Shown in pieces: positions 9,842 to 20,483 of a stretch of 35,524 nt of DNA (its first letter is position 1; each line of letters starts with the position of its first letter). Below the pieces are notes generated by a model. It was not told the origin of the DNA. It ran no database searches and was given only the letters and a program-made list of their open reading frames with translations. The stretch is taken from the NCBI GenBank assembly GCA_041310895.1, contig JBFYWT010000002.1:1-35524 (forward strand), given 5' to 3'. The stretch comes from Desulfobacteraceae bacterium (GTDB taxonomy: Bacteria; Desulfobacterota; Desulfobacteria; Desulfobacterales; SpSt-501). The position numbers and the translations under genes are program-made.

Positions 9842-10768
9842 TCACCGGGCCCCGGTTGTTTTTATCGGGGTCAAGTAGAAGAGGAGCATCCCGCCCAAAA
9901 TGAGCCCCATGCCACCTAAATGAAACAGCTCGATCGACTCGCCGAGCAGGGGGACCGACAGCAGGGAGGCGAAAGCGGGAATCAGGTTGATGAAGAGCCC
10001 GGCACGGTTGGGGCCGAGGAGATCGACCCCTTTGTTCCAGCAGAAATAGGCGACGATGGAGGGGAAGAGGGCGACATACAGGATGCTCAGCACGATGTCG
10101 CAAGAGAGGGTGAAGGGCCCGAGGGCGGCGCGCTCGATCAGATAGAGCGGCAGCAGGCCGGCCGCCCCCAGGAAAAACGTGGCCGCCAGCAGGCTCAGGG
10201 GGTGGATGGGCGGCCGCCGGCGCAGCAGGACGGAATAGAGCCCGTAGGCCGCGACGGCGATGATCATGAGCAGGTCGCCCTGTACGAACGACATGGCGAG
10301 AAGGGTTTTGAGCTCGCCCCGCAGAACAATCAGAACCGCGCCCAGGAGGCAGACCACCACCCCGGCCATCTGGCGGGCCGCGGCCCTTTCCCGGTAGAGC
10401 ATGAGGCTCAAGAGCACGATCACCGCCGGCATGGTGGATTGGATCAGGGCGCCGTTGATGGCGGTGGTGGTGTGGACTGCGGTGTAGAGCAGGGTGTTGA
10501 AGGTCGAGATTCCCAGGAGCGAGAGGAGCAGGAGCATTTTCCAGCCGCGGGCGATCGCGTGGCGGTCTGCGGCTATCTGGCGCAGGGTGAAGGGCAGGAT
10601 CAGCACGAAGGCGAGGCTCCAGCGCCAGAAGGCGAAGGCCACCGGCGGGATGAGGTCCGTGACCCCGCGCGCCAGCACGATGTTCCCCGCCCAGCACAGG
10701 GGGGCGGCGCTCAGGATGAGGTAGGGCCAGAGGGAGGCGGCCGGCTTCGAGGGCGGCTCCGGCGGCAT
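9842..10768 (-). CDS. DMT-superfamily transporter (EamA family)
   Basis: 308 aa with about 10 hydrophobic helices and a two-EamA-repeat layout. The start lies 2 nt after the stop of the upstream gene. Confidence 0.75.
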   Translation of the reverse strand: MPPEPPSKPAASLWPYLILSAAPLCWAGNIVLARGVTDLIPPVAFAFWRWSLAFVLILPFTLRQIAADRHAIARGWKMLLLLSLLGISTFNTLLYTAVHTTTAINGALIQSTMPAVIVLLSLMLYRERAAARQMAGVVVCLLGAVLIVLRGELKTLLAMSFVQGDLLMIIAVAAYGLYSVLLRRRPPIHPLSLLAATFFLGAAGLLPLYLIERAALGPFTLSCDIVLSILYVALFPSIVAYFCWNKGVDLLGPNRAGLFINLIPAFASLLSVPLLGESIELFHLGGMGLILGGMLLFYLTPIKTTGAR

Positions 10769-10770
10769 GC

Positions 10771-11454
10771 TCAGGACCGGGGCGGCAGCAGGATGCGGGC
10801 GTCGGCCACGACGCAGCGCTCCGACGAGCAGAAGACCGGATTCAGGTCGATGGAGTCGATCCGCTCGCCGAGGTCCATGACCAGGGCGGAAAACGCGAGC
10901 ACGAGCTCGGTCAGCTTCGCGACGTTGACGGCCTCGCCCCCGCGGTGGCCGGTCAGCAGGCGGCTGCCGCGCAGACAGCCCAGCATCGCCGGCACGTCGC
11001 GCGCCGTGAGCGGGGCCATGCGCGTGACCGTGTCCTTGTAGACCTCGACCGCGGTGCCGCCGATCCCCATCAGGATCACCGGGCCGAACTGGAAGTCGAG
11101 CTTGGCGCCGACGATGAGCTCGTGCCCGGCGAGCATTTCGGCGACGAGGACCCCGGCGAAGCCCGGCAGGCGGCTGAAGCGCTCCCAGGCGGCCGCCAGT
11201 TCGCCGGCAGCGGCGATCCCGGGGGCGACCCCTCGGACCTCGGACTTGTGCACGATCTGCGCCGAGACCACCTTGGCCACCACCGGATAGCCGATGCTGG
11301 CGGCGGCGGCGGCCGCCGCTTCCGCGGTTTTGGCCCAGGCGAACCGCGGCACCGGCACCCCGGCCGCCGCCAGCAGGCGCAGGGCCTCGGGTTCCAGCAC
11401 CCAGCCGTCCGCGCGACCGGCGGCGATGATGTTCAGTGCGTCGGCAGCGAGCAT
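10771..11454 (-). CDS. ADP-forming acetyl/acyl-CoA synthetase, beta (ATP-grasp) subunit
   Basis: Real start taken at MLAADALNIIAA.. (ATG 11454); the track ORF extends upstream into the alpha gene. ATP-grasp-type sequence: LxEPEAxxLL...GVPVP......A......IGYPVVAKVVS..IVHKSE..GV. Confidence 0.75.
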   Translation of the reverse strand: MLAADALNIIAAGRADGWVLEPEALRLLAAAGVPVPRFAWAKTAEAAAAAAASIGYPVVAKVVSAQIVHKSEVRGVAPGIAAAGELAAAWERFSRLPGFAGVLVAEMLAGHELIVGAKLDFQFGPVILMGIGGTAVEVYKDTVTRMAPLTARDVPAMLGCLRGSRLLTGHRGGEAVNVAKLTELVLAFSALVMDLGERIDSIDLNPVFCSSERCVVADARILLPPRS

Positions 11455-12815
11455 GGCCTGCACCTCCGCATGGCTTCCACCATGAAGGCCGCCCCGTCGA
11501 TCGAGGAGGCGACCGGTACGTTGTTCAATTCGAAGCCCTCGATCAGGATCCGGTATTTCTCGACGTGGGGCACGTAGGCCACGAGCGGCTTGCCGGTCTG
11601 CTGGTGCACGTAGCTCAACCGGGCGCCGAGATCGGAGCTGATCCCGGGCGAGTAGGGCAGGAGCAGAAGCAGCAGGCAATCCACTTCCGGCGCCCGCCCC
11701 AGGGCGCCGACGGCGGCCTCGAAATCCTCGTCCGTGGAGCTGCCCGTGAGGTCGACCGGGTTTTCCAGTGAGGCGATGTCGCGGATGCTGGGCGAGAGGC
11801 CGGAGCGCATCTCTTCCTGGACCGCCGCCGACAGCCGCGGCAGGCGCAGGCCCAGGTCGCTGCAGATGTCCGAGGCGAGGGCGCCGTGGCCGCCGCTCAC
11901 CGTGATGACGCCGACGTTGCCCTCGATGCTGCGCGGGTAGTGGCTGAGGGACTCGCAGAAGCAGGTCAGCTCGAACTCGCTGCGTGCCTCGGCGATTCCG
12001 TGCTGGGCGAGGACGTTGGAAAAGACCCGGTAGTCGCCGGCGAGGGAGGCGGTGTGGCTGCTCACCGCGCGGCCGCCCGCCTCAGTCTTGCCGGCCTTGA
12101 GGACGACCACCGGTTTGGCAGTCGCGGCGGCCAGCTCCACGAAGCTCCGGCCCTCGTTGCGGCCGAAACCTTCGAGATAAAAGGCGATCACGCGGGTCTG
12201 CGGGTCCTGGGCGAGGTGGCGCAGCAGGTCGGTCTCGCGGATCAGGGCCTTGTTGCCGATGCTGACGGCGAGCGACAGGCCCAGGCCCTGCTCGGTGAAT
12301 TTAACCATCTGGTCCACCAGGACGCCCCCGCTCTGGCTGACGAACCCGACGCCGCCGGGGCTGGGACGGACCAGGCGCTCGCCCGGCAGGAAAAAGGTGT
12401 CGAAGAGCCCGGGCGCGTAAATGCCCAGGCAGTTGGGGCCGATGAAGGGGAAGTCCGCCGCGCGCGCCAGGGCGGTGATTTTATCCTGCAGGTCCGCGCG
12501 GCCGACTTCGGCGAACCCGCCGGAAACGATCACGGCACCGCCCACCCCGCACTGGATGCACTCCGCGAGGGTCTCCGGGACGAGCTCGGCGCGCACGGCA
12601 ATCACGGCCAGGTCGACCGGGCCGGGGATTTCGCCGACGCTCCGGTAGACCGGCTCGCGCTTGAAGACCCCGCCGCGCGGGTTCACCGCAAAGGCCTTGA
12701 CCGGGTAGCGCAGGTGGATCTTGTTGTAGATGACGTTGGCCGGGTGCCGGTCGTTTGCGAGCGACACCCCGACCACGGCCAGGGAAGCGGGTTTAAACAG
12801 GGGCGTGAAGTCCAC
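11433..12815 (-). CDS. ADP-forming acetyl/acyl-CoA synthetase, alpha subunit (CoA-binding plus succinyl-CoA-synthetase-like domains)
   Basis: 460 aa. LFxPxSxAVVGxS......P.NVIY, AVNP......V.G...Y.SV.EIPG.VDLAVI, GPNCLG, SQSGG. Overlaps the beta gene by 22 nt. Confidence 0.8.
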   Translation of the reverse strand: MDFTPLFKPASLAVVGVSLANDRHPANVIYNKIHLRYPVKAFAVNPRGGVFKREPVYRSVGEIPGPVDLAVIAVRAELVPETLAECIQCGVGGAVIVSGGFAEVGRADLQDKITALARAADFPFIGPNCLGIYAPGLFDTFFLPGERLVRPSPGGVGFVSQSGGVLVDQMVKFTEQGLGLSLAVSIGNKALIRETDLLRHLAQDPQTRVIAFYLEGFGRNEGRSFVELAAATAKPVVVLKAGKTEAGGRAVSSHTASLAGDYRVFSNVLAQHGIAEARSEFELTCFCESLSHYPRSIEGNVGVITVSGGHGALASDICSDLGLRLPRLSAAVQEEMRSGLSPSIRDIASLENPVDLTGSSTDEDFEAAVGALGRAPEVDCLLLLLLPYSPGISSDLGARLSYVHQQTGKPLVAYVPHVEKYRILIEGFELNNVPVASSIDGAAFMVEAMRRCRPCSLPTH

Positions 12816-12824
12816 GGGAGCTCC

Positions 12825-14006
12825 TCATGGGCGCGGCACGAGCCGCAGCAGCCGGTCCCCGCCGGGGCGGCCGGGCCCGTAAGCGTCGGTGTCGGAGGTG
12901 ATCACGAAAAGCAGCCCGTCGGCCCCCTGGGCCACGTCCCGCAGCCGGCCGTAGGCGTTCTCCAGGAGGAATTCCTGCCCGACCACCCTGGGTCCGTCGA
13001 GCCTGAGGCGCACGAGTTTTTTGCCGACCAGGTTGGTGAAGAAGAAATCTCCGGCCCAGGCCGGGAAGCGCTCCCCGTTGTAAAATGTGCACCCGGCAGG
13101 GGCGATGGCCGGGGTGTACTCGGCCAGGGGCGGGAGGGTGCCCTCGCGGGTGGCGCGGTGGTGGACCAGGGGCCAGCCGTAGTTGCCGCCGGCGACGATG
13201 AGGTTGATCTCGTCCCCGCCCCCGGGGGCGTCGTTCCAGGAGGGACCGTGCTCGGTCTGGAAGATCCACCCGGTCCCGGGCTGGACGGTCATGCCCTGGG
13301 AGTTGCGGTTGCCGTAGGAAAATATTTCGGGCCGGGCATCGGCGCGGCCGGAAAACGGGTTGTCGGGCGGCACCGTGCCGTCCTCGTTCAGGCGCAGGGT
13401 CTTGCCGTTTAAATCCATGAGGTCCTGGGCGCGGCGTCCCTCGCCGCGCTCGCCGAGGGTTAAGTAGAGCTTGCGGTCGGCGCCGAAGCGGATGCGGCAG
13501 CCGAAATGCTTGGGCTTGTCGCTGCCGGGAAAACCGGGGAAAACCACCTGCAGGAGTTTCAACCCCTCCGGGGTCTCTTCGAAGCGCGCCACCCGGGTCA
13601 TCATGCCCAGCTCGTTATCAACGGTGTAGGCGAGGTAGAGCTGCCGGTTCTTCTCGTAGTCCGGGTGCAGGGTCATGTCCAGGAGCCCGCCCTGGCCGCG
13701 GTAGGCGACCGGGGGGACCCCCGGCACCGGCGCGGGCCTTAGCACCCCGTGCTCCACCACGCGCAGCCGCCCCGGCCGTTCGGTGATGAAGAGCCGGCCG
13801 TCCGGTGCGGGCACCACGGCCCAGGGGCTTTGGAGCCCTTCGGCCGCGGTCTCCACCCGGAAGGTGTCTGCGGTGGACGGGAGCGCGGGCGCGTCCTGCG
13901 GCGTCAGGCGCGAGGAGAGCCAGGCGGCGATGTTGTAGGCATCGGCGGCCGGTGCCGGCAGGGCGCATGCCAGCCACAAGCCTAACGTGAGGGCAGCGGC
14001 CTTCAT
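12825..14006 (-). CDS. PQQ-dependent sugar dehydrogenase (soluble aldose/sorbosone dehydrogenase, YliI-like), exported
   Basis: 393 aa. Signal peptide MKAAALTLGLWLACALPAPAA. Beta-propeller blocks: L.SPWA....PDGRLFITER.GRLRVV, GGLLD..LHPDY, HFG.RI.F..D..LY...GE, LNGK.LRLN.DG..P.DNPF, E..SYG.RN.QG, HGP...D....DEIN.I..G.NYGWP. Confidence 0.85.
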   Translation of the reverse strand: MKAAALTLGLWLACALPAPAADAYNIAAWLSSRLTPQDAPALPSTADTFRVETAAEGLQSPWAVVPAPDGRLFITERPGRLRVVEHGVLRPAPVPGVPPVAYRGQGGLLDMTLHPDYEKNRQLYLAYTVDNELGMMTRVARFEETPEGLKLLQVVFPGFPGSDKPKHFGCRIRFGADRKLYLTLGERGEGRRAQDLMDLNGKTLRLNEDGTVPPDNPFSGRADARPEIFSYGNRNSQGMTVQPGTGWIFQTEHGPSWNDAPGGGDEINLIVAGGNYGWPLVHHRATREGTLPPLAEYTPAIAPAGCTFYNGERFPAWAGDFFFTNLVGKKLVRLRLDGPRVVGQEFLLENAYGRLRDVAQGADGLLFVITSDTDAYGPGRPGGDRLLRLVPRP

Positions 14007-14097
14007 GGTCGACTCCTCCTGAGGTGCGGGTCGCTTGCAGGGTGCCGGTTCCTCCGTAGCACAGATGCGGCCGCGACGGCAACCTTCCGCGTGCGGT

Positions 14098-14126
14098 TTG
14101 CCGGGCTTTCGCCGATATGGTATGGT
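14098..14126 (+). promoter_or_regulatory. Candidate sigma-70 promoter for the GTPase operon
   Basis: TTGCCG (14098-14103), 17 nt, TATGGT (14121-14126). If used, transcription starts downstream of the ATG at 14035 and rules that start out. Confidence 0.25.
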
Positions 14127-14190
14127 GCCGCGGGCGATGAGAATTGCGACGGGGGCTGTGGCGCCCCCTTGCGTTTATCGGGGAGTGCGC

Positions 14191-16098
14191 GTGCGGAAGG
14201 AGTTCCACGAGAGTCTGAAGCGGATCCGGGAGGAGCTGCCGCGGCTGGCCGAGCTCCTCCAGTTCGATGCCGCCGGGGAGATCGGGCCCTGGGCCAAGGC
14301 CATCGACACCCGCCTGCTCGCCCGCTTCGACCCGGGGTTCCCGCTGGTGGCGGCCGTCTGCGGCGGGGGCTCATCGGGCAAGTCCACTCTCTTCAACTCC
14401 CTGATCGGCGCCCGCCGCTCGCCCACCGGGGGCCGGGCGGGGATGAACCGCCGCGTGCTCTTCTCCCTTCCCGCATCCCTGGAGGGCCGCGCGGACCTGG
14501 TGACCGCCCTGCTCGACCCCTTCGGCATGCCGGCAGCCGCCCTCGAGCGCCCCGACGAGCTGCTCGACCCGGGTGGGCCGCTCTTCGTTGCCACCGCGGG
14601 GCGCGTCGTGCTCATGGACACGCCCGACTTCGACACGGGGGCCGGGGGCCGCTACGCCAACCGCGAGAGCGCGCGCGGGGCCCTCGATGCGGCCGACGTC
14701 CTGATCTATGTCTTTACCAACTCCAATTACAACAACCGCGACAACACCGATTTCATCGCCGAGATGTTGACCGGCATCGGTCGGCGCAAGTGCTTTTTGG
14801 TCTATCGCGTCTACCCGGGGTTCACGGAAGAGGAGGTGGTCGCTCACGCCATGACGGTGGCGGGCCACATCTACGGTGCCGAGGCCGGCAAGAGCGTCCT
14901 TGGCATCTACCGGGCCGACGAGGACAACCGGGTGGCCGCCGGCGAGGCCTTTATGGCGCTGCGCCCGGCGCGGGAGGGGGATCCGACGCTGGCCGCGGCC
15001 CTCGAGAGTCTCGACCTGGCGCAGCTCAGGCTTGATCTGCATGCGAGCGTCGTGGCGGATGTGCTGGGGAAGGCTGACGAATTGGCCGGCCGCGCCCACC
15101 GCTCCCTGGAGGATCTCCACCGCTATCTCGGCGCCTTGCGGGCGGCGCAGGCGCTTTGCCTCCAGGAGGCCCTGAGCTTTTTCCCGATGGACCGGGTGGT
15201 GCGGCGCTTCGCCACGATCTGGGCCGATACCGACCCGCCGGCGGTGAGACTCATGCGGCGCACCGGAAGCCTGATCGAGCTGCCCGTGCGGGCCGTGCTG
15301 GGGGCCGCCGGCTGGGCCCGGGAAAAGCTCTCCGGCGCGCCGCCCGCCCCGGCGCCGGAGGATCAGTTCGCCCGCAAGCTCGAGGAGAACCTTGTGGCGG
15401 CGGCGACCGCCCTGAATCACTACCTGCTCAGCCCGCATCTCGTGCTGCCGGCGGCGGCCCCGGCGCCCGCGGTCTATGAACCCTCCGCCGCCCTTCCGGA
15501 GCGGCGCGACCCTGCGGTCCCGGCGGTGTCGGTGGCGGCGCACCCGGCCGTCCTCCCGGCCCAGGTGCGGCTGCGGCAGAGGGACTTCGACGCGGTGCTG
15601 CAGCGGATTCTGAGCCGCCGGGAGGAGATCGGCCGGATCGGCCGCGATATGGACGAGGAGCTGCGCCGGCTCGCCGACCACTTCCGCCGCCGGATGGGCG
15701 CCTGGGCCAAGATCAGCCAGACCTTCTGGGCGGCCCTGAACGTTCTGCCCGCCACGCTGGCCGTGACCTACGTTCTGTCCACCGGCGACCCGGTGGGGGG
15801 GGCCACGATCAAGGTCAAGCTGGCCGGGCTCTTCGGCATGAAGGACCTCTACGCGCTCGTGGCCATCCCGGTCACGCGCGGCATGAAAAAGGCCGACCGC
15901 AAACAGCTCCAGGCAATGCTCGGCCCGCTGGCCCGGACCTGGCTCCAGGGCAAGTCCGCCGCCGTGCAGGCGCTCTTCGAGGAGGCGCTCTCCGGGGATA
16001 TCCTGCGCGCGGCCGAGGAGGCCGCGGCCGCCGCTGGCCGCCTTTCCGATTCCCTCTCCCAGGCGCTCGCCCGCACCGCCCCCGTGAGGACCCGATGA
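14191..16098 (+). CDS. Dynamin-like / P-loop GTPase 1 with a long helical C-terminal half and a hydrophobic membrane segment; G4 motif degenerate
   Basis: Frame of the 14035..16098 ORF. Preferred start is GTG 14191 (GGGGAG 5 nt upstream); alternatives are ATG 14137 and ATG 14035. Walker A GGGSSGKSTLFNSLIG (from 14362). DTPDFD (14617). No NKxD motif (YRVY at the equivalent place). C-terminal hydrophobic stretch FWAALNVLPATLAVTYVLS...LYALVAIPV. Confidence 0.8.
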   Translation: MRKEFHESLKRIREELPRLAELLQFDAAGEIGPWAKAIDTRLLARFDPGFPLVAAVCGGGSSGKSTLFNSLIGARRSPTGGRAGMNRRVLFSLPASLEGRADLVTALLDPFGMPAAALERPDELLDPGGPLFVATAGRVVLMDTPDFDTGAGGRYANRESARGALDAADVLIYVFTNSNYNNRDNTDFIAEMLTGIGRRKCFLVYRVYPGFTEEEVVAHAMTVAGHIYGAEAGKSVLGIYRADEDNRVAAGEAFMALRPAREGDPTLAAALESLDLAQLRLDLHASVVADVLGKADELAGRAHRSLEDLHRYLGALRAAQALCLQEALSFFPMDRVVRRFATIWADTDPPAVRLMRRTGSLIELPVRAVLGAAGWAREKLSGAPPAPAPEDQFARKLEENLVAAATALNHYLLSPHLVLPAAAPAPAVYEPSAALPERRDPAVPAVSVAAHPAVLPAQVRLRQRDFDAVLQRILSRREEIGRIGRDMDEELRRLADHFRRRMGAWAKISQTFWAALNVLPATLAVTYVLSTGDPVGGATIKVKLAGLFGMKDLYALVAIPVTRGMKKADRKQLQAMLGPLARTWLQGKSAAVQALFEEALSGDILRAAEEAAAAAGRLSDSLSQALARTAPVRTR

Positions 16099-17900
16099 GA
16101 ACGCTGGAACGACAGGCGGCTGCCCTGAAGGCCCTGGGGCGGATGGAAGGGCTCACGGCCGAGCTCGCGCGTTTCAAGGCCGGGTTGGAAGGCCTCCCCT
16201 TGTGGCTGCCCGCCGCCGGGCTCAGCCGGCAGTGTGCGGAGGCCCTGGCGATGATCGATCGCATCGCCCGGCGGATCGACCGCAGCCTGGTGGTGACGGT
16301 CATCGGCCCTTCCGGCTCCGGGAAATCGACCCTGGTGAACGCCCTCGCGGGGGGGGCAGCGATCTCCCCGGCGGGGCACGATCGACCGACGACCCAGAAG
16401 GTGGTGGTCCTGGGCCGCGGCGGCGAGGATGCCGTGGAACTCGGCCGGGAGCTCGGCGCCGATGCGCTCGATCTTCAGACGATTGAGGACGGGCGGCTGC
16501 CGCCCGGGGTGTGCCTGATCGATACGCCGGACACCGACAGCACGGCGAACCGGCGCCACCTGCCGATGCTGGAGCGCGTCGTGGCCCACTCGGATGTTTT
16601 GATCTGCGTGTTCGACGCCGAGAACCCCAAGCGTCGGGACCATGCGGACATCCTGGGCCCGATCGTCGGGCGCTTCGACGGCGAGTCCCTGGTGGTGGTG
16701 CTCAACAAGTGCGACCGGCTGGATGAAACCGAGCTGCGCGAGAGGATCCTGCCGGACTTTCGCGACTACCTTCACGCCGCCTGGGGCGGGGCCGTCGACC
16801 GGGCGCTGTGCGTCAGCGCCCGCCGCCACCTGCACGACCCGGCCTGGGATGCGGCAGCGGGGCCGCGCCACGGGTTCGACCAGTTCGTCGATCTCACCCG
16901 GATCGTGTTCGGCGAGATGGGCCGAAGCGGGTTTGCGGTTGACCGCCGGGTCGAGAACGCCGGCCGCCTGCATGCGGTGGTGCGCGAGGAGATTCGGCAC
17001 GAGCTCGCCGCCGATCGCGACACCCTGGAGGAGGCCGAGCGCCGTCTGGACCAGGCCTGGGCCGATGCCGCGGCCGCGGCCCTGGAGGCACTGCGCGGCG
17101 GCAACCTCCGGCTCCCGCCGGGACTGGGGGCGGCGGTCTACCAGCAGCTTGCCCAGCGCTGGGTGGGGCCGGTCGGGTGGGTGGTGGCCCTCTGGGCGCG
17201 GTTCCTCGGCGTCGGCAGTGGGATCGCCTCTTTCCTGCGCCTCAGCCGGCCCCGCTCCCGCCGGAAGCCCTCCTTTGCCGGCTCCGGCCCGGTGCCGTTG
17301 GACGAAAGTGTTGGGCCGGAGATGCCCGACCCCGGCCGGTTGGACGCAGCGCTCGACGGCTTCCGCCTGGCCTTGCTCCGGCGCTGGGCGGATGCCGCGG
17401 AGATGCTGGTGCGGAGCCGTTTCGATCCCGCGGTGCGCGGGGTGGAAACGGCCGGCGCCTATGTGGCGGCGATTTCCGGGCCGTTGGCATCCTTGTGGTC
17501 ACGGGCCCTCGCGGACGAGGTCTCCGAAATTCCCCGGCGCCTTGGCGGATTCTGGCTTCAATCCTTGTTGAACGCCCCGCCGGCCGGCCTGATCGGATAC
17601 GTGGGGTGGGTGACGGTGGTGAGTTTTTTCCGGGGAGACTATCTCAGCGGCGGTTTTTTCGTGCACGCCTTCTGGCTGATCGGCATCGCACTCGCCCTCA
17701 GCTTCTGCCTGCTCCAGGTGCTCATCCGGCGCCGGCTCGATCCCGACCGGGTCGCCGCGCGTGCGGCCCACCGCATGGGGCGCGCGCTGCCGCCCGCGGC
17801 GGGCGAGCCGGTCACCGAGGTGAGCCGGCAGGTGCGCACCGTGCGGGAGATGGGGGCGGCATTATCCGCTACGGCGCCCGGCGGCATGCCTTCCAGGTAA
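16095..17900 (+). CDS. Dynamin-like / P-loop GTPase 2 with two C-terminal transmembrane helices
   Basis: 601 aa. ATGA overlap with the upstream gene. GPSGSGKSTLVNALAG (16305), DTPDTDS (16521), NKCD (16704-16715). C-terminal FWLQSLLNAPPAGLIGYVGWVTVVSFF and FFVHAFWLIGIALALSFCLLQVLI. Confidence 0.85.
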   Translation: MRTLERQAAALKALGRMEGLTAELARFKAGLEGLPLWLPAAGLSRQCAEALAMIDRIARRIDRSLVVTVIGPSGSGKSTLVNALAGGAAISPAGHDRPTTQKVVVLGRGGEDAVELGRELGADALDLQTIEDGRLPPGVCLIDTPDTDSTANRRHLPMLERVVAHSDVLICVFDAENPKRRDHADILGPIVGRFDGESLVVVLNKCDRLDETELRERILPDFRDYLHAAWGGAVDRALCVSARRHLHDPAWDAAAGPRHGFDQFVDLTRIVFGEMGRSGFAVDRRVENAGRLHAVVREEIRHELAADRDTLEEAERRLDQAWADAAAAALEALRGGNLRLPPGLGAAVYQQLAQRWVGPVGWVVALWARFLGVGSGIASFLRLSRPRSRRKPSFAGSGPVPLDESVGPEMPDPGRLDAALDGFRLALLRRWADAAEMLVRSRFDPAVRGVETAGAYVAAISGPLASLWSRALADEVSEIPRRLGGFWLQSLLNAPPAGLIGYVGWVTVVSFFRGDYLSGGFFVHAFWLIGIALALSFCLLQVLIRRRLDPDRVAARAAHRMGRALPPAAGEPVTEVSRQVRTVREMGAALSATAPGGMPSR

Positions 17901-17915
17901 GTTAGGCTTTTTTTC

Positions 17916-17988
17916 TGTGGGAGCGGCATCCTGCCGCGATCATCGTGGCTGGAAGCCACTCCCACAAAAGCTGAACTTACTTGCTGAC
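17916..17988 (+). repeat. Copy 1 of a ~52-nt near-perfect palindromic (REP/MITE-like) element plus a conserved 3' flank
   Basis: TGTGGGAGCGGCATCCTGCCGCGAT-C-ATCGTGGCTGGAAGCCACTCCCACA (17916-17966): about 25-bp arms with 3 mismatches and 1 G-T pair. The second copy is at 29685-29755. Lies in the convergent gap after the GTPase 2 stop. Confidence 0.7.
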
Positions 17989-18030
17989 GAACCGCTGCCG
18001 TAGGCAGCGTGCAGCGCTTCCAAGAACCGG

Positions 18031-18429
18031 TTAGGGTTTCACGACGAACGCTTTTGACCCCAGCACCTCGCCCGCCTCATTCACAACGTCCACCCGCCAT
18101 TCACCCGAGGTGACGTTCTTGATGCTCCAGTAGCGTCCCGCGGGGTAGTTCACGGTCAGCGGCACTTCCAGGAGCCTCTTCCCTTCCCGGTGCCACACGT
18201 GGCGTACGGTGACGGGGGGGGATTGGGCTGCGATTTTGGTCCAGCACACCACCCGGGATGTGGCCGCGTCGAATTCCCCGGCGACTCCCACCGGCATCCG
18301 GGCGTCGACCCCGGTGGCGAAGACCATCTCCTCCACCGTGATTTTGCCCGCAGCGGCAAGCGCCCCTGCCGCGATGGCCACGACCAGTCCTGCCACGCCG
18401 ATGACCATTAGAGAACGCGCCTTCATCAT
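18031..18429 (-). CDS. Small membrane-anchored protein with a DUF2914-like C-terminal domain
   Basis: 132 aa. N-terminal anchor MMKARSLMVIGVAGLVVAIAAGALAAAG. C-terminal V.CWT.I.......V.HVWH.EGK......L.V....RYWS.K.V..GEWRVDVV.E.GEVLG...F.V, which matches my recollection of the DUF2914 signature. Confidence 0.55.
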   Translation of the reverse strand: MMKARSLMVIGVAGLVVAIAAGALAAAGKITVEEMVFATGVDARMPVGVAGEFDAATSRVVCWTKIAAQSPPVTVRHVWHREGKRLLEVPLTVNYPAGRYWSIKNVTSGEWRVDVVNEAGEVLGSKAFVVKP

Positions 18430-18569: not shown

Positions 18570-18671
18570 ATTGCTGTTTAACGCACGCCGAACGGGCCGA
18601 GGGCCATCGTGCCCGACCGGCCGAAAACAGACGCTCTTGAACCGAACGGCACTACGAACGCGAGGCCGGAC

Positions 18672-20483
18672 ATGCTGCATCAACCGCACACATTCCATAT
18701 CCCCGTCATGGGCACGGGGTTCACCATCGACACCCCCCTGAAGGTCGCCCGCTACGGGATCTCCTCCGTCATCTCTCTCGTGGACGACATTCTCATCGAG
18801 CAGGTGCGAAAATTTCACTGCGACCGGCTGGGCGAGCCCTTCGAGCCCATCGCCGAGGATGAGGAGGACTGCCGCGCCCGGCGCATCACCGCCTATCTGG
18901 ACCTGGTGGACCGGCGGGTGCGGCGGCAGGTGGCGGAGCTGCAGGCAGCGCCGTTCGAGGAGGGCACTGAGATCACCCGCTACTTCCGCATGCTGCCCAA
19001 CGGTGAGCTGAAGGCGGCCTACGATCGGATGCTGGCGGCCCGCGGTTCGGAGCGGGCGCGCCTGCAGGCGGAGCTGCGGCCCCTGGCCGTGCCGGGGAGC
19101 ATCGACGTCAACATCATGACCAAGCTCGACGGCGACACGTTTCGCAACGGGCACAAGCTCGCCCCGGAATTCTCCCACGCGCTGGCGGCCCTGCGGGGTT
19201 TTGCCCGCAGCACTCTGAAATCCGCCATCGTCTTTTCAGCCGGGATCAACCAGCGGCTTTACAGGTATGCCGCGACCTTCGAGGACTTCTTCCCCGATGC
19301 GAACGGCCATATCATCAAGACCATCATCCTGAAAGTCAGCGATTTCCATTCGGCCGAGGTTCAGGGCAAGTTTTTGGCCAAGCGCGGGCTGTGGATCTCC
19401 GAGTTCCGGATCGAGTCGGGGCTCAACTGCGGCGGGCACGCCTTCGCCACCGACGGACACCTGCTCGGGCCGGTGCTCGAGGAGTTCAAGCAGCGGCGCA
19501 CCGAGCTGACCGGCACCTTGCGGGAGAGCTACCTCAAGGCGCTCGACGCCCAGGGCCGGCCGGTATCCTGGGCGCCGGGCGAAACCCGGATCACGGTGCA
19601 GGGCGGCATCGGAACGGCGGAGGAGAACGATTTCCTGGTGCGGTACTACCAGTTGAACGGCACCGGCTGGGGCACGCCGTTTCTGCTCGTTCCCGAGGCA
19701 ACCAACGTGGATCGGGCGCAGATCGAGAAGCTGCTCCATGTCCAGCCCGGAGACGTCTATCTCAGCGACAGCTCCCCCCTGGGGGTTCCCTTCTGGAACC
19801 TGCGGACCTCGGCCAGCGAGGAGAAGCGTCGCCGGCTGGCCACCGACGGCCGCCCCGGAAGCCCTTGCCCGAAAGGCTATGCCGCCTTCAACACCGATTT
19901 CAGCGAGATACCGCTTTGCATCGCCGCCCGCACCTACATTCGGCGCAAGCTCGGCCAACTGCCCAAGGAGGGGCTTTCGGCCGAGCAGGAGTCCACCCTG
20001 AGGGAGAGCGTGCTCGCCAAGTCCTGCCTCTGCAACGACTTGGCGGGGGGGGTGGCGCTCAACTACCACCTCGACGACGACGCCACTCCGGCTGTCTGTT
20101 GCGGGCCCAACATCGTGAACTTCTCCCGGCTCGCTTCCCTGGAAGAGATGGTCGGCCACATTTACGGCCGGTTCAGCCTGCTGGCCACGAGCGACCGGCC
20201 GCACATGTTCGTCGAGGAGATCCGGCTTTACGTGGAGCATCTGCGCAAGGAGGTGTCCCGCTTTTCGATCGGGCTCTCCCGCCGACCCCAGGGCTACTTC
20301 AACACCTTTAAAGCCAACCTGCTGAGCGGAGTGGACTACTACCGGGAGCTGGCACGCCAGTTCCTCGAGGAGAGGCGGGGGCGGTTTCTGGAGGAACTGG
20401 AGTGCATCCGCCGTGAGATTGAAGAGGTTCTCCTGCCGTTGCCGATCGCGATCGAGGCCCAAAATAAAATAGCGTGCCGATGA
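18672..20483 (+). CDS. Large conserved-looking hypothetical protein (possible FMN/TIM-barrel-like core plus a Cys-rich C-terminal region); family not recognised
   Basis: Track ORF 18609..20483. Preferred start is ATG 18672 (GAGG 6 nt upstream), giving MLHQPHTFHIPVMGTGFTIDTPLKVARYGISSVISL. Internal ESGLNCGGHAF and VQGGIGTAEEN.FL..Y.LNGTGWGTPFLLVPEAT. C-terminal cysteines in SPCPKG, PLCIAA, KSCLCNDL and AVCCGPN. Confidence 0.75.
   Translation: MLHQPHTFHIPVMGTGFTIDTPLKVARYGISSVISLVDDILIEQVRKFHCDRLGEPFEPIAEDEEDCRARRITAYLDLVDRRVRRQVAELQAAPFEEGTEITRYFRMLPNGELKAAYDRMLAARGSERARLQAELRPLAVPGSIDVNIMTKLDGDTFRNGHKLAPEFSHALAALRGFARSTLKSAIVFSAGINQRLYRYAATFEDFFPDANGHIIKTIILKVSDFHSAEVQGKFLAKRGLWISEFRIESGLNCGGHAFATDGHLLGPVLEEFKQRRTELTGTLRESYLKALDAQGRPVSWAPGETRITVQGGIGTAEENDFLVRYYQLNGTGWGTPFLLVPEATNVDRAQIEKLLHVQPGDVYLSDSSPLGVPFWNLRTSASEEKRRRLATDGRPGSPCPKGYAAFNTDFSEIPLCIAARTYIRRKLGQLPKEGLSAEQESTLRESVLAKSCLCNDLAGGVALNYHLDDDATPAVCCGPNIVNFSRLASLEEMVGHIYGRFSLLATSDRPHMFVEEIRLYVEHLRKEVSRFSIGLSRRPQGYFNTFKANLLSGVDYYRELARQFLEERRGRFLEELECIRREIEEVLLPLPIAIEAQNKIACR

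Follow-up and report, generated by a model that had tools for sequence, protein, structure and literature searches.

A conserved two-gene operon of predicted dynamin-like GTPases with a non-canonical switch II in a Desulfobacteraceae bacterium

Dynamin-like proteins (DLPs) of bacteria are as a rule encoded by tandem or fused genes (PMC4159319, PMC6104087), and it has been argued in general that the products of tandem genes form heterotypic complexes (PMC6104087, PMC4159319). Few such pairs have been studied (PMC4159319, PMC6104087). In the Campylobacter pair Cj-DLP1/DLP2 (PDB 5OWV/5OXF) the separate proteins display negligible GTP hydrolysis, whereas assembly into the tetramer stimulates GTPase activity, and the tetramer tethers liposomes (PMC6104087). 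The gene of the bacterial dynamin-like protein BDLP1 of Nostoc punctiforme (PDB 2J68/2J69) also stands in tandem, with that of BDLP2 (PMC4159319), and tandem DLP genes encode LeoA and LeoBC of enterotoxigenic Escherichia coli (PDB 4AUR; 'Eleos' in PADLOC). In DynA of Bacillus subtilis two DLP units cooperate on membranes (PMC6104087). Here we describe two overlapping genes, A and B, in a stretch of 35,524 nucleotides (nt) from a Desulfobacteraceae bacterium (assembly GCA_041310895.1, contig JBFYWT010000002.1, positions 1 to 35,524; hereafter the window). We consider it likely that this two-gene operon encodes a self-contained heterotypic bacterial DLP pair, which would most plausibly remodel or tether the cytoplasmic membrane. 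The pair is arranged as follows.

14191..16098, + strand: open reading frame (ORF) A, 635 amino acids, GTG start, A-type dynamin-like subunit.
16095..17900, + strand: ORF B, 601 amino acids, ATG start, B-type dynamin-like subunit.
16095..16098, + strand: ATGA stop/start overlap in the sequence, the TGA of A (16096-16098) lying on the ATG of B (16095-16097).

A sequence-only reading of the window had proposed a dynamin-like pair in two adjacent ORFs of these lengths, overlapping by ATGA, and the sequence bears out this layout. The database copy of A is also 635 residues long, and its start position is common to the homologues found by search and alignment. The Nostoc BDLP1 and BDLP2 genes are separated by 525 bp of non-coding DNA (PMC4159319), whereas the genes of the present pair overlap.

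The family of A and B was addressed by library scans, family profiles and fold comparison. In both proteins the Pfam model Dynamin_N exceeded its gathering cut-off of 27, with 30.6 bits in A and 39.7 bits in B, over the P-loop region only. MMR_HSR1 (Pfam) also passed its cut-off in both, and names given to relatives by NCBI and JGI include '50S ribosome-binding GTPase', 'GTPase Era' and 'EcfA2'. These two observations would suit a different assignment, in which the proteins are not dynamin-like but belong to the Era/Der/YlqF-type ribosome-associated GTPases or are generic P-loop NTPases with long helical tails. However, the NCBIfam models for Era, Der, HflX and YlqF gave 12-31 bits against cut-offs of 116-307, and no NCBIfam model came near its cut-off for A or B. 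Single-sequence searches of A and B against the PDB returned P-loop noise only. The family profile of B matched Cj-DLP1 (1.8e-5) and Cj-DLP2 (4e-3) among PDB sequences, and the best match of the A profile was SynDLP (2e-3). When the P-loop was removed from the B profile, LeoA (4.7e-5) and Cj-DLP1 (4.4e-4) ranked ahead of all other PDB sequences, including Der.

Models of A and B were built with AlphaFold2 (AF2) on alignments of 120 sequences, and reached a mean predicted local distance difference test (pLDDT) of 75.5 for A and 82.8 for B with a predicted template modelling score (pTM) of 0.69 for each. All 48 Foldseek matches of the A model in the PDB at E <= 1e-3 were dynamin-superfamily or EHD structures, led by S-OPA1, IniA, Fzo1, Cj-DLP1, BDLP, MFN1/2 and SynDLP. 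The B model was led by Nostoc BDLP (3.6e-11) and Cj-DLP1 (1.5e-9), followed by IniA, MFN2, Cj-DLP2 and LeoA. These alignments spanned 370-800 columns. Both models are helical ahead of the G domain and mostly helical after it, as in a neck and trunk, and the helical C-terminal half that had been anticipated for both proteins is thereby confirmed. Comparison of the two families by hhalign gave a probability of 98% over the region from G1 to the strand after G3, and on this alignment A and B are paralogues. Taken together, the library scans, profiles and fold searches lead us to regard A and B as dynamin-superfamily proteins of the BDLP/mitofusin type, a fold class read from predicted structures. 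Since the fold searches put dynamin-superfamily proteins first for both models, and LeoA and Cj-DLP1 stood above Der without the P-loop, we give almost no credence to a place among the Era/Der-type GTPases, a placement that the sequence-only reading had itself named as fatal to its proposal.

Comparison with the described systems reveals a shared architecture and consistent differences. Cj-DLP1/DLP2 have the BDLP fold and are among the top structural and profile matches of A and B, at an identity of ~11-13%. GTPase activity and tethering of membranes set in when the two Campylobacter proteins assemble with each other (PMC6104087). Cj-DLP1 possesses a Campylobacter-specific assembly domain, and its G3 is DTPG where A and B have DTPD; A is also without G2, G4 and G5. 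Nostoc BDLP1, the best structural match of B (3.6e-11), is built alike, with G domain, neck, trunk and a hydrophobic tip, but its G3 glycine is absent from A and B. The second helix of the predicted hairpin of B, close to the C-terminus, has a transmembrane-like hydropathy (Kyte-Doolittle 2.45), and in this B is closer to mitofusin or atlastin than to a protein with the BDLP paddle.

LeoA is the best profile match of the G3-G4 region of B, and the loop after G3 is alike in the two proteins (FDAENPKRRDHAD in B and VDATNPLKESHSD in LeoA). In contrast to the present pair, LeoBC is a split gene in a three-gene system, and LeoABC resides on a pathogenicity island. LeoA has DTPG at G3 and LeoB has been described with the classical DXXG (PMC4159319), where A and B have DTPD. 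Mitofusin and Fzo1 (mini-MFN1, 5YEW; Fzo1, 9KFD) gave the highest template modelling scores (TM-scores), 0.45-0.57 over the G domain and first helical bundle, and they likewise have a late transmembrane hairpin followed by a C-terminal helix, and heterotypic isoform pairs. They are nevertheless eukaryotic fusogens of the outer mitochondrial membrane with a canonical G3, and the relation is one of fold, at 10-18% identity. DynA, finally, is one fused polypeptide, and its NCBIfam model gave 18 bits with the pair against a cut-off of 1600.

The nucleotide-binding motifs of the two subunits were located as follows.

14362..14385, + strand: P-loop GGGSSGKS of A, residues 58-65, from alignment.
14617..14628, + strand: G3 position of A, DTPD, residues 143-146, followed by FDTG; Asp stands for the switch-II Gly, from alignment.
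14803..14817, + strand: YRVYP of A, residues 205-209, where B has NKCD, from alignment; an AF2 strand covers residues 200-207.
16305..16328, + strand: P-loop GPSGSGKS of B, residues 71-78, from alignment and the locus ORFs.
16383..16394, + strand: switch I/G2 of B, RPTT, residues 97-100, invariant in a 25-sequence alignment and in 64/64 locus B ORFs.
16521..16532, + strand: G3 position of B, DTPD, residues 143-146, from the hidden Markov model (HMM) alignment.
16704..16715, + strand: G4 of B, NKCD, residues 204-207, from alignment; found in B and not in A.
16815..16823, + strand: G5-like SAR of B, residues 241-243; A242 and R243 are invariant, S241 nearly so.

The P-loops extend to GGGSSGKST in A (58-66) and GPSGSGKST in B (71-79), and the longer stretches quoted for them in the sequence-only reading, GGGSSGKSTLFNSLIG in A and GPSGSGKSTLVNALAG in B, are present, as is DTPD in both. 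The assignment of DTPD to G3 stands in terms of position, at residues 143-146 of either protein, but the motif is non-canonical in that Asp replaces the Gly of DxxG. The switch-II Gly is, to our knowledge, retained almost throughout the TRAFAC GTPases. In HMM alignments with the P-loop-free profile, DTPD of B falls exactly on DTPG of LeoA and Cj-DLP1, and NKCD on NKMD/TKAD, and it follows that the switch-II Gly is Asp in both subunits. The motif is kept in 120/120 homologues of A, with DTPDFDS in distant orthologues, and B has DTPDTDS in 62/64 loci. The DxxG described as the classical G3 consensus of the dynamin family (PMC4159319) is thus lacking, and by alignment the G3 of both A and B is non-canonical.

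The subunits diverge in the remaining motifs. NKCD was confirmed to be confined to B, with YRVY at the equivalent position in A, and [NT]KxD occurs nowhere in 81/84 A-type ORFs. At the switch-I position A has GG-R-AGMNRR, in which alignment and hhalign find the conserved Thr absent, and it has YRADEDN where B has SAR, the latter being assigned to G5 by its position. An earlier description of the pair as having one degenerate G4 was therefore correct for A but understated, since A also lacks G2 and G5 and the G3 is odd in both.

Such losses raise the question of whether B alone is an active dynamin-like GTPase, working as a homodimer, with A reduced to a nucleotide-free pseudo-GTPase that is a membrane scaffold or adaptor only. 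The absence from A of the G2 Thr, the G3 Gly, NKxD and G5 is in keeping with this, as is the lack of any detectable PDB sequence relative of its G3-G4 region. Against it, A keeps the P-loop (GxxxxGKS/T) and the Walker-B Asp, both of which are invariant in the close family and persist in distant orthologues, a retention that is unexpected if nucleotide binding had been lost. The P-loop glycines, Lys and Ser of A are invariant in the 25-sequence alignment and nearly so among 120 homologues, and the distant A-type partners have GPNNAGKS or GPNNSGKS. Moreover A evolves more slowly than B, with a mean identity to the window protein of 54.2% as compared to 46.5% for B, and a higher value for A in 59/59 loci. 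Being better conserved than B and retaining its phosphate-binding motifs in distant orthologues, A is, judged from these alignments, a constrained subunit and not a decaying one. B itself carries the same odd DxPD and is hence not plainly canonical either. We therefore regard a pseudo-GTPase role for A as unlikely and favour a heterotypic pair. The loop after G3 is strongly conserved yet unlike between the subunits (FTNSNYNNRDNTDF in A, FDAENPKRRDHAD in B). This loop would correspond to the trans-stabilising loop of the dynamin G interface, and the difference between the subunits would fit a heterotypic contact between G domains.

Conservation of the two-gene arrangement is a further argument for pairing. 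Homology searches returned 1021 relatives of A and 866 of B, and those listed were nearly all full length. The few with an organism label were mostly Desulfobacterales metagenome-assembled genomes, in which the proteins are named "GTPase", "hypothetical" or, wrongly, "EcfA2"; here and below, taxon names of family members are those of the source labels only. Three long contigs carry A and B next to each other, the genes overlapping by 4 nt or 1 nt. Scanning metagenomes with A as the seed yielded 326 relatives, from which 80 loci were kept, and a homologue of B followed A on the same strand in 73/73 loci with at least 300 nt of downstream sequence. The junction was tight in 63 of these 73, as a 4-nt overlap (31), a 1-nt overlap (15) or a 3-nt gap (17). 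Two DLP paralogues thus lie side by side on one strand, as is characteristic of tandem bacterial DLP pairs such as BDLP1/2, IniA/C, Cj-DLP1/2 and DynA/B.

An exhaustive search with the B profile over representatives of 50% identity clusters extended the family considerably. There were 4575 representatives at E <= 1e-3 and 1165 at E <= 1e-10, a count which includes fragments and may include A-type paralogues; full-length matches reached down to ~1e-26. Where a stored representative had a recognisable motif, it was DxPD in 83/85 cases and DxPG in 2/85. In a distant subfamily of B, labelled Planctomycetota, Binatia and Dormibacteraeota, DxPD was found in 117/118 proteins (DAPD in 116), and G4 was mostly NRxD, with Lys changed to Arg. 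The B-type gene of this subfamily was directly preceded, in 4/4 long contigs, by a gene for a Dynamin_N/MMR_HSR1 protein of 582-618 residues. These upstream proteins carry GPNN[AS]GKS, PTGGATRR and DTPDFDS, are without NKxD on the G4 strand, and have A and not B as their best BLAST match, which makes them A-type. Since both features are conserved in the distant subfamily, the A-type/B-type pair and DxPD are, as far as sequence comparison can tell, old and widespread and no local oddity.

We would further suggest, with rather more doubt than confidence, that the family forms a large uncharacterised clade of obligately paired DLPs with a rebuilt nucleotide switch, in which Asp stands for the switch-II Gly in both subunits and one subunit is without base recognition yet evolves more slowly. 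The B profile has no fewer than 1165 matching 50% identity clusters at E <= 1e-10, fragments and perhaps A-type paralogues included, and the source labels comprise Desulfobacterales, Planctomycetota, Binatia, Dormibacteraeota and others. If the suggestion is true, activation would be unlike that in all studied dynamins, for example by an active site completed in the heterodimer, or by a cation or Arg neutralising the carboxylate.

A few representatives of the wider family have DxPG, e.g. P0325 (the distant subfamily comprises proteins P0404-P0521 and loci L091-L094), and the non-canonical G3 may have rare exceptions or reversions. In one metagenomic locus (L079, 4899-8747) A and B appeared as a single DynA-like fusion ORF of 1283 amino acids. 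This candidate was rejected, as the junction contains a run of 8 G that is 6 G long in the close relative L064, and the apparent fusion is probably a homopolymer assembly error. A profile scan of the genome contigs with the B alignment gave unrelated P-loop matches only. For many family members the sources give 'energy-coupling factor transporter ATP-binding protein EcfA2', 'GTPase Era', 'EngB' or '50S ribosome-binding GTPase' as the name; these look like mis-annotations with no basis beyond the P-loop.

Membrane association of the two subunits was assessed by hydropathy and from the models, and three segments stand out.

15721..15876, + strand: conserved, moderately hydrophobic helix pair of A, residues 511-562; candidate paddle or membrane hairpin.
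17160..17237, + strand: hydrophobic helix of B, residues 356-381, Kyte-Doolittle 1.65; model helices 344-355 and 359-381.
17550..17735, + strand: predicted helical hairpin of B, residues 486-547, second helix transmembrane-like; model helices 486-512 and 519-547.

The helix pair of A is highly conserved, with Kyte-Doolittle values of 1.5 (511-532) and 1.4 (542-562) and a family mean that is also 1.4-1.5. In B residues 515-549 reach 2.45 (family mean 2.57) and residues 490-512 ~1.4, and the hairpin is modelled confidently, the 10-residue blocks that cover 481-550 averaging a pLDDT of 89-94. Hydrophobic hairpin-like segments near the C-terminus, which had been expected of both proteins, were thus recovered in A and in B. 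The order in either protein is G domain, helical bundle, hairpin and C-terminal helix, which in the models recalls the BDLP paddle and, for B, an anchor of the mitofusin/atlastin type. Hydropathy thus supports the membrane anchoring proposed in the sequence-only reading, and the hairpins would hold both subunits in the cytoplasmic membrane.

A working model of the pair can be outlined from these observations. Translational coupling through ATGA would yield both subunits together, each with a predicted BDLP/mitofusin layout of N-terminal helices, extended G domain, helical neck and trunk, hydrophobic hairpin and C-terminal helix. B may be the guanine-specific subunit, as G1, the RPTT switch I, NKCD and SAR suggest, and A most likely binds nucleotide without reading the base, as a non-canonical partner. 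The subunits would associate, probably across their G domains, in the manner suggested or demonstrated for tandem DLPs elsewhere in bacteria, and nucleotide-driven hinge movements could then tether, fuse or reshape the membrane in housekeeping maintenance of the envelope. Because the switch-II Gly is Asp (D-x-P-D) in both, sensing of the gamma-phosphate must differ from that in canonical GTPases. One may speculate that a cation offsets the charge of the extra acidic residue, or that an invariant Arg of the partner does so in trans, in which case activity would depend on pairing.

Several observations weigh against a heterotypic, membrane-active DLP pair. The exchange of the G3 Gly for Asp in both subunits, together with the loss of G2, G4 and G5 in A, means that GTP binding and hydrolysis cannot be assumed, and LeoA neither bound nor hydrolysed GTP in vitro (PMC4159319). 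The G3-G4 region of A, as a profile, found no match in the PDB at E <= 10. TM-scores of full-length A and B to solved DLPs were low (0.2-0.3), which is expected for hinged multi-domain proteins, and the best values (0.45-0.57) are limited to the mini-mitofusin and Fzo1 constructs, i.e. to the G domain and first helical bundle. The putative membrane region of A has a pLDDT below 50 and is only moderately hydrophobic. Neither a characterised family member nor a curated family model was found, and no conserved neighbour points to a physiological role.

The genomic neighbourhood bears on a further explanation, namely that the pair is a dynamin-type anti-phage module which, like Eleos (LeoA/LeoBC) or DynA, seals infected cells or delays their lysis. 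In PADLOC, LeoA and LeoBC were the sole defence models to match A, and LeoA was the best for B; LeoA is also the best PDB sequence match of the G3-G4 profile of B, and DynA is reported to aid phage defence via membrane binding (PMC12998192). The PADLOC matches are however weak, at E 1e-3 to 7e-6 and 16-23 bits except for A with LeoBC (E 0.095), and all but this last reach the default E-value cut-off of the program. At best the aligned stretch is 30-50 residues long against 559-601 profile positions, and for B it comprises ~30-40 residues around the P-loop, too little to make the pair a member of Eleos, and two genes are present in place of the three-gene Leo arrangement.

The surroundings of the pair are those of housekeeping genes. 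In the clade of the window it is preceded by a divergent ADP-forming acyl-CoA synthetase gene (CoA_binding/Succ_CoA_lig + ATP-grasp_5) and an EamA transporter gene, and followed on the opposite strand by genes for a 4HBT thioesterase, a Trypsin_2-TPR protein and Fe-ADH, a conserved synteny that argues against a defence function. The window keeps this gene order, with a GSDH gene inserted. The flanks in the distant branch are likewise ordinary, unrelated metabolic or transport genes, and no relatives of A were found in IMG/VR viral contigs, GenBank phages or PLSDB plasmids. This pattern, together with the absence from viral and plasmid collections, points to a chromosomal operon passed on by vertical descent and away from a defence island. 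The defence option raised in the sequence-only reading accordingly found no support, and we judge it quite improbable, although a DynA-like side role in phage tolerance is conceivable.

In a clade in which A is ~50-54% identical to that of the window, the pair is instead preceded by two divergent genes (L024-L090; e.g. L031 2889-4655, L035 1358-2389), which encode an RNase_T-GIY-YIG protein of ~590 residues (50 loci) and a Metallophos protein of ~345 residues (27 loci). Both look DNA-repair-like, and a functional link to the pair is not evident. A conserved third gene on the same strand was not found across the examined loci. Recurring neighbours were considered as a third component and rejected: the upstream genes vary by clade and the downstream 4HBT and Trypsin-TPR genes lie on the opposite strand, for which reason we treat them as lineage synteny. 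Together with the constant and mostly tight succession of A and B in the metagenomic loci, this agrees with the earlier notion of a self-contained two-gene module.

Some further features of the window may be mentioned. The GSDH gene (12825-14006, - strand) lies between the acyl-CoA synthetase gene and the DLP pair and is an insertion relative to the syntenic loci L001 and L003. The G+C content of 10001-18000 is ~0.70, as compared to ~0.52-0.66 elsewhere in the window. An ORF of 624 amino acids at 18609-20483 (+ strand) has no Pfam match; a close homologue is found at the same place in L001 and not in L002 or L003, and it is an uncharacterised conserved protein.

Two candidate signals flank the operon.

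14180..14185, + strand: Shine-Dalgarno-like GGGGAG, 5 nt 5' of the GTG of A, by direct reading of the sequence.
17894..17983, no strand assigned: long imperfect palindrome of ~90 nt between convergent genes, directly 3' of the B stop; possible terminator.

The palindromic repeat reported at the end of the pair was confirmed, with a predicted RNA fold of -55.8 kcal/mol and a z of -7.1. It does not pass a simple intrinsic-terminator scan. The window contains a single copy, and its core arms were absent from the 94 loci retrieved. An Rfam scan gave sub-threshold matches to microRNA-precursor families only, of which two overlie the palindrome. The repeat may be a terminator, or else an element resembling repetitive extragenic palindromes or miniature inverted-repeat transposable elements (REP/MITE-like). 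The claim that the pair has a promoter-like element of its own was not confirmed, as a simple sigma-70 consensus scan of 13900-18150 found no such site. A GC-rich hairpin (GGGGGC...GCCCCC) with a T-rich tail at 14151-14168, 23 nt 5' of the A start and inside the likely 5' leader, was flagged by the terminator scan (4 sites found as against 2.6 in shuffles), and could be regulatory or due to chance.

The tandem BDLP architecture is already known; what is new is the systematic change of Gly to Asp in both subunits and the better-conserved partner without G2, G4 and G5. Literature searches found nothing on the A/B family in Desulfobacterales or on a 'DTPD'/DxPD switch II. A practical consequence concerns databases, in which many members are misnamed ('EcfA2', 'Era', '50S ribosome-binding GTPase'). 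Bacterial DLPs are mostly paired, which raises the question of why two subunits are needed. The A/B family offers a natural and strongly asymmetric pair, in which a B that appears guanine-specific is set against a better-conserved A with the phosphate-binding core only, and it could show how labour is divided in heterotypic DLP pairs and whether GTP can be sensed without the switch-II Gly.

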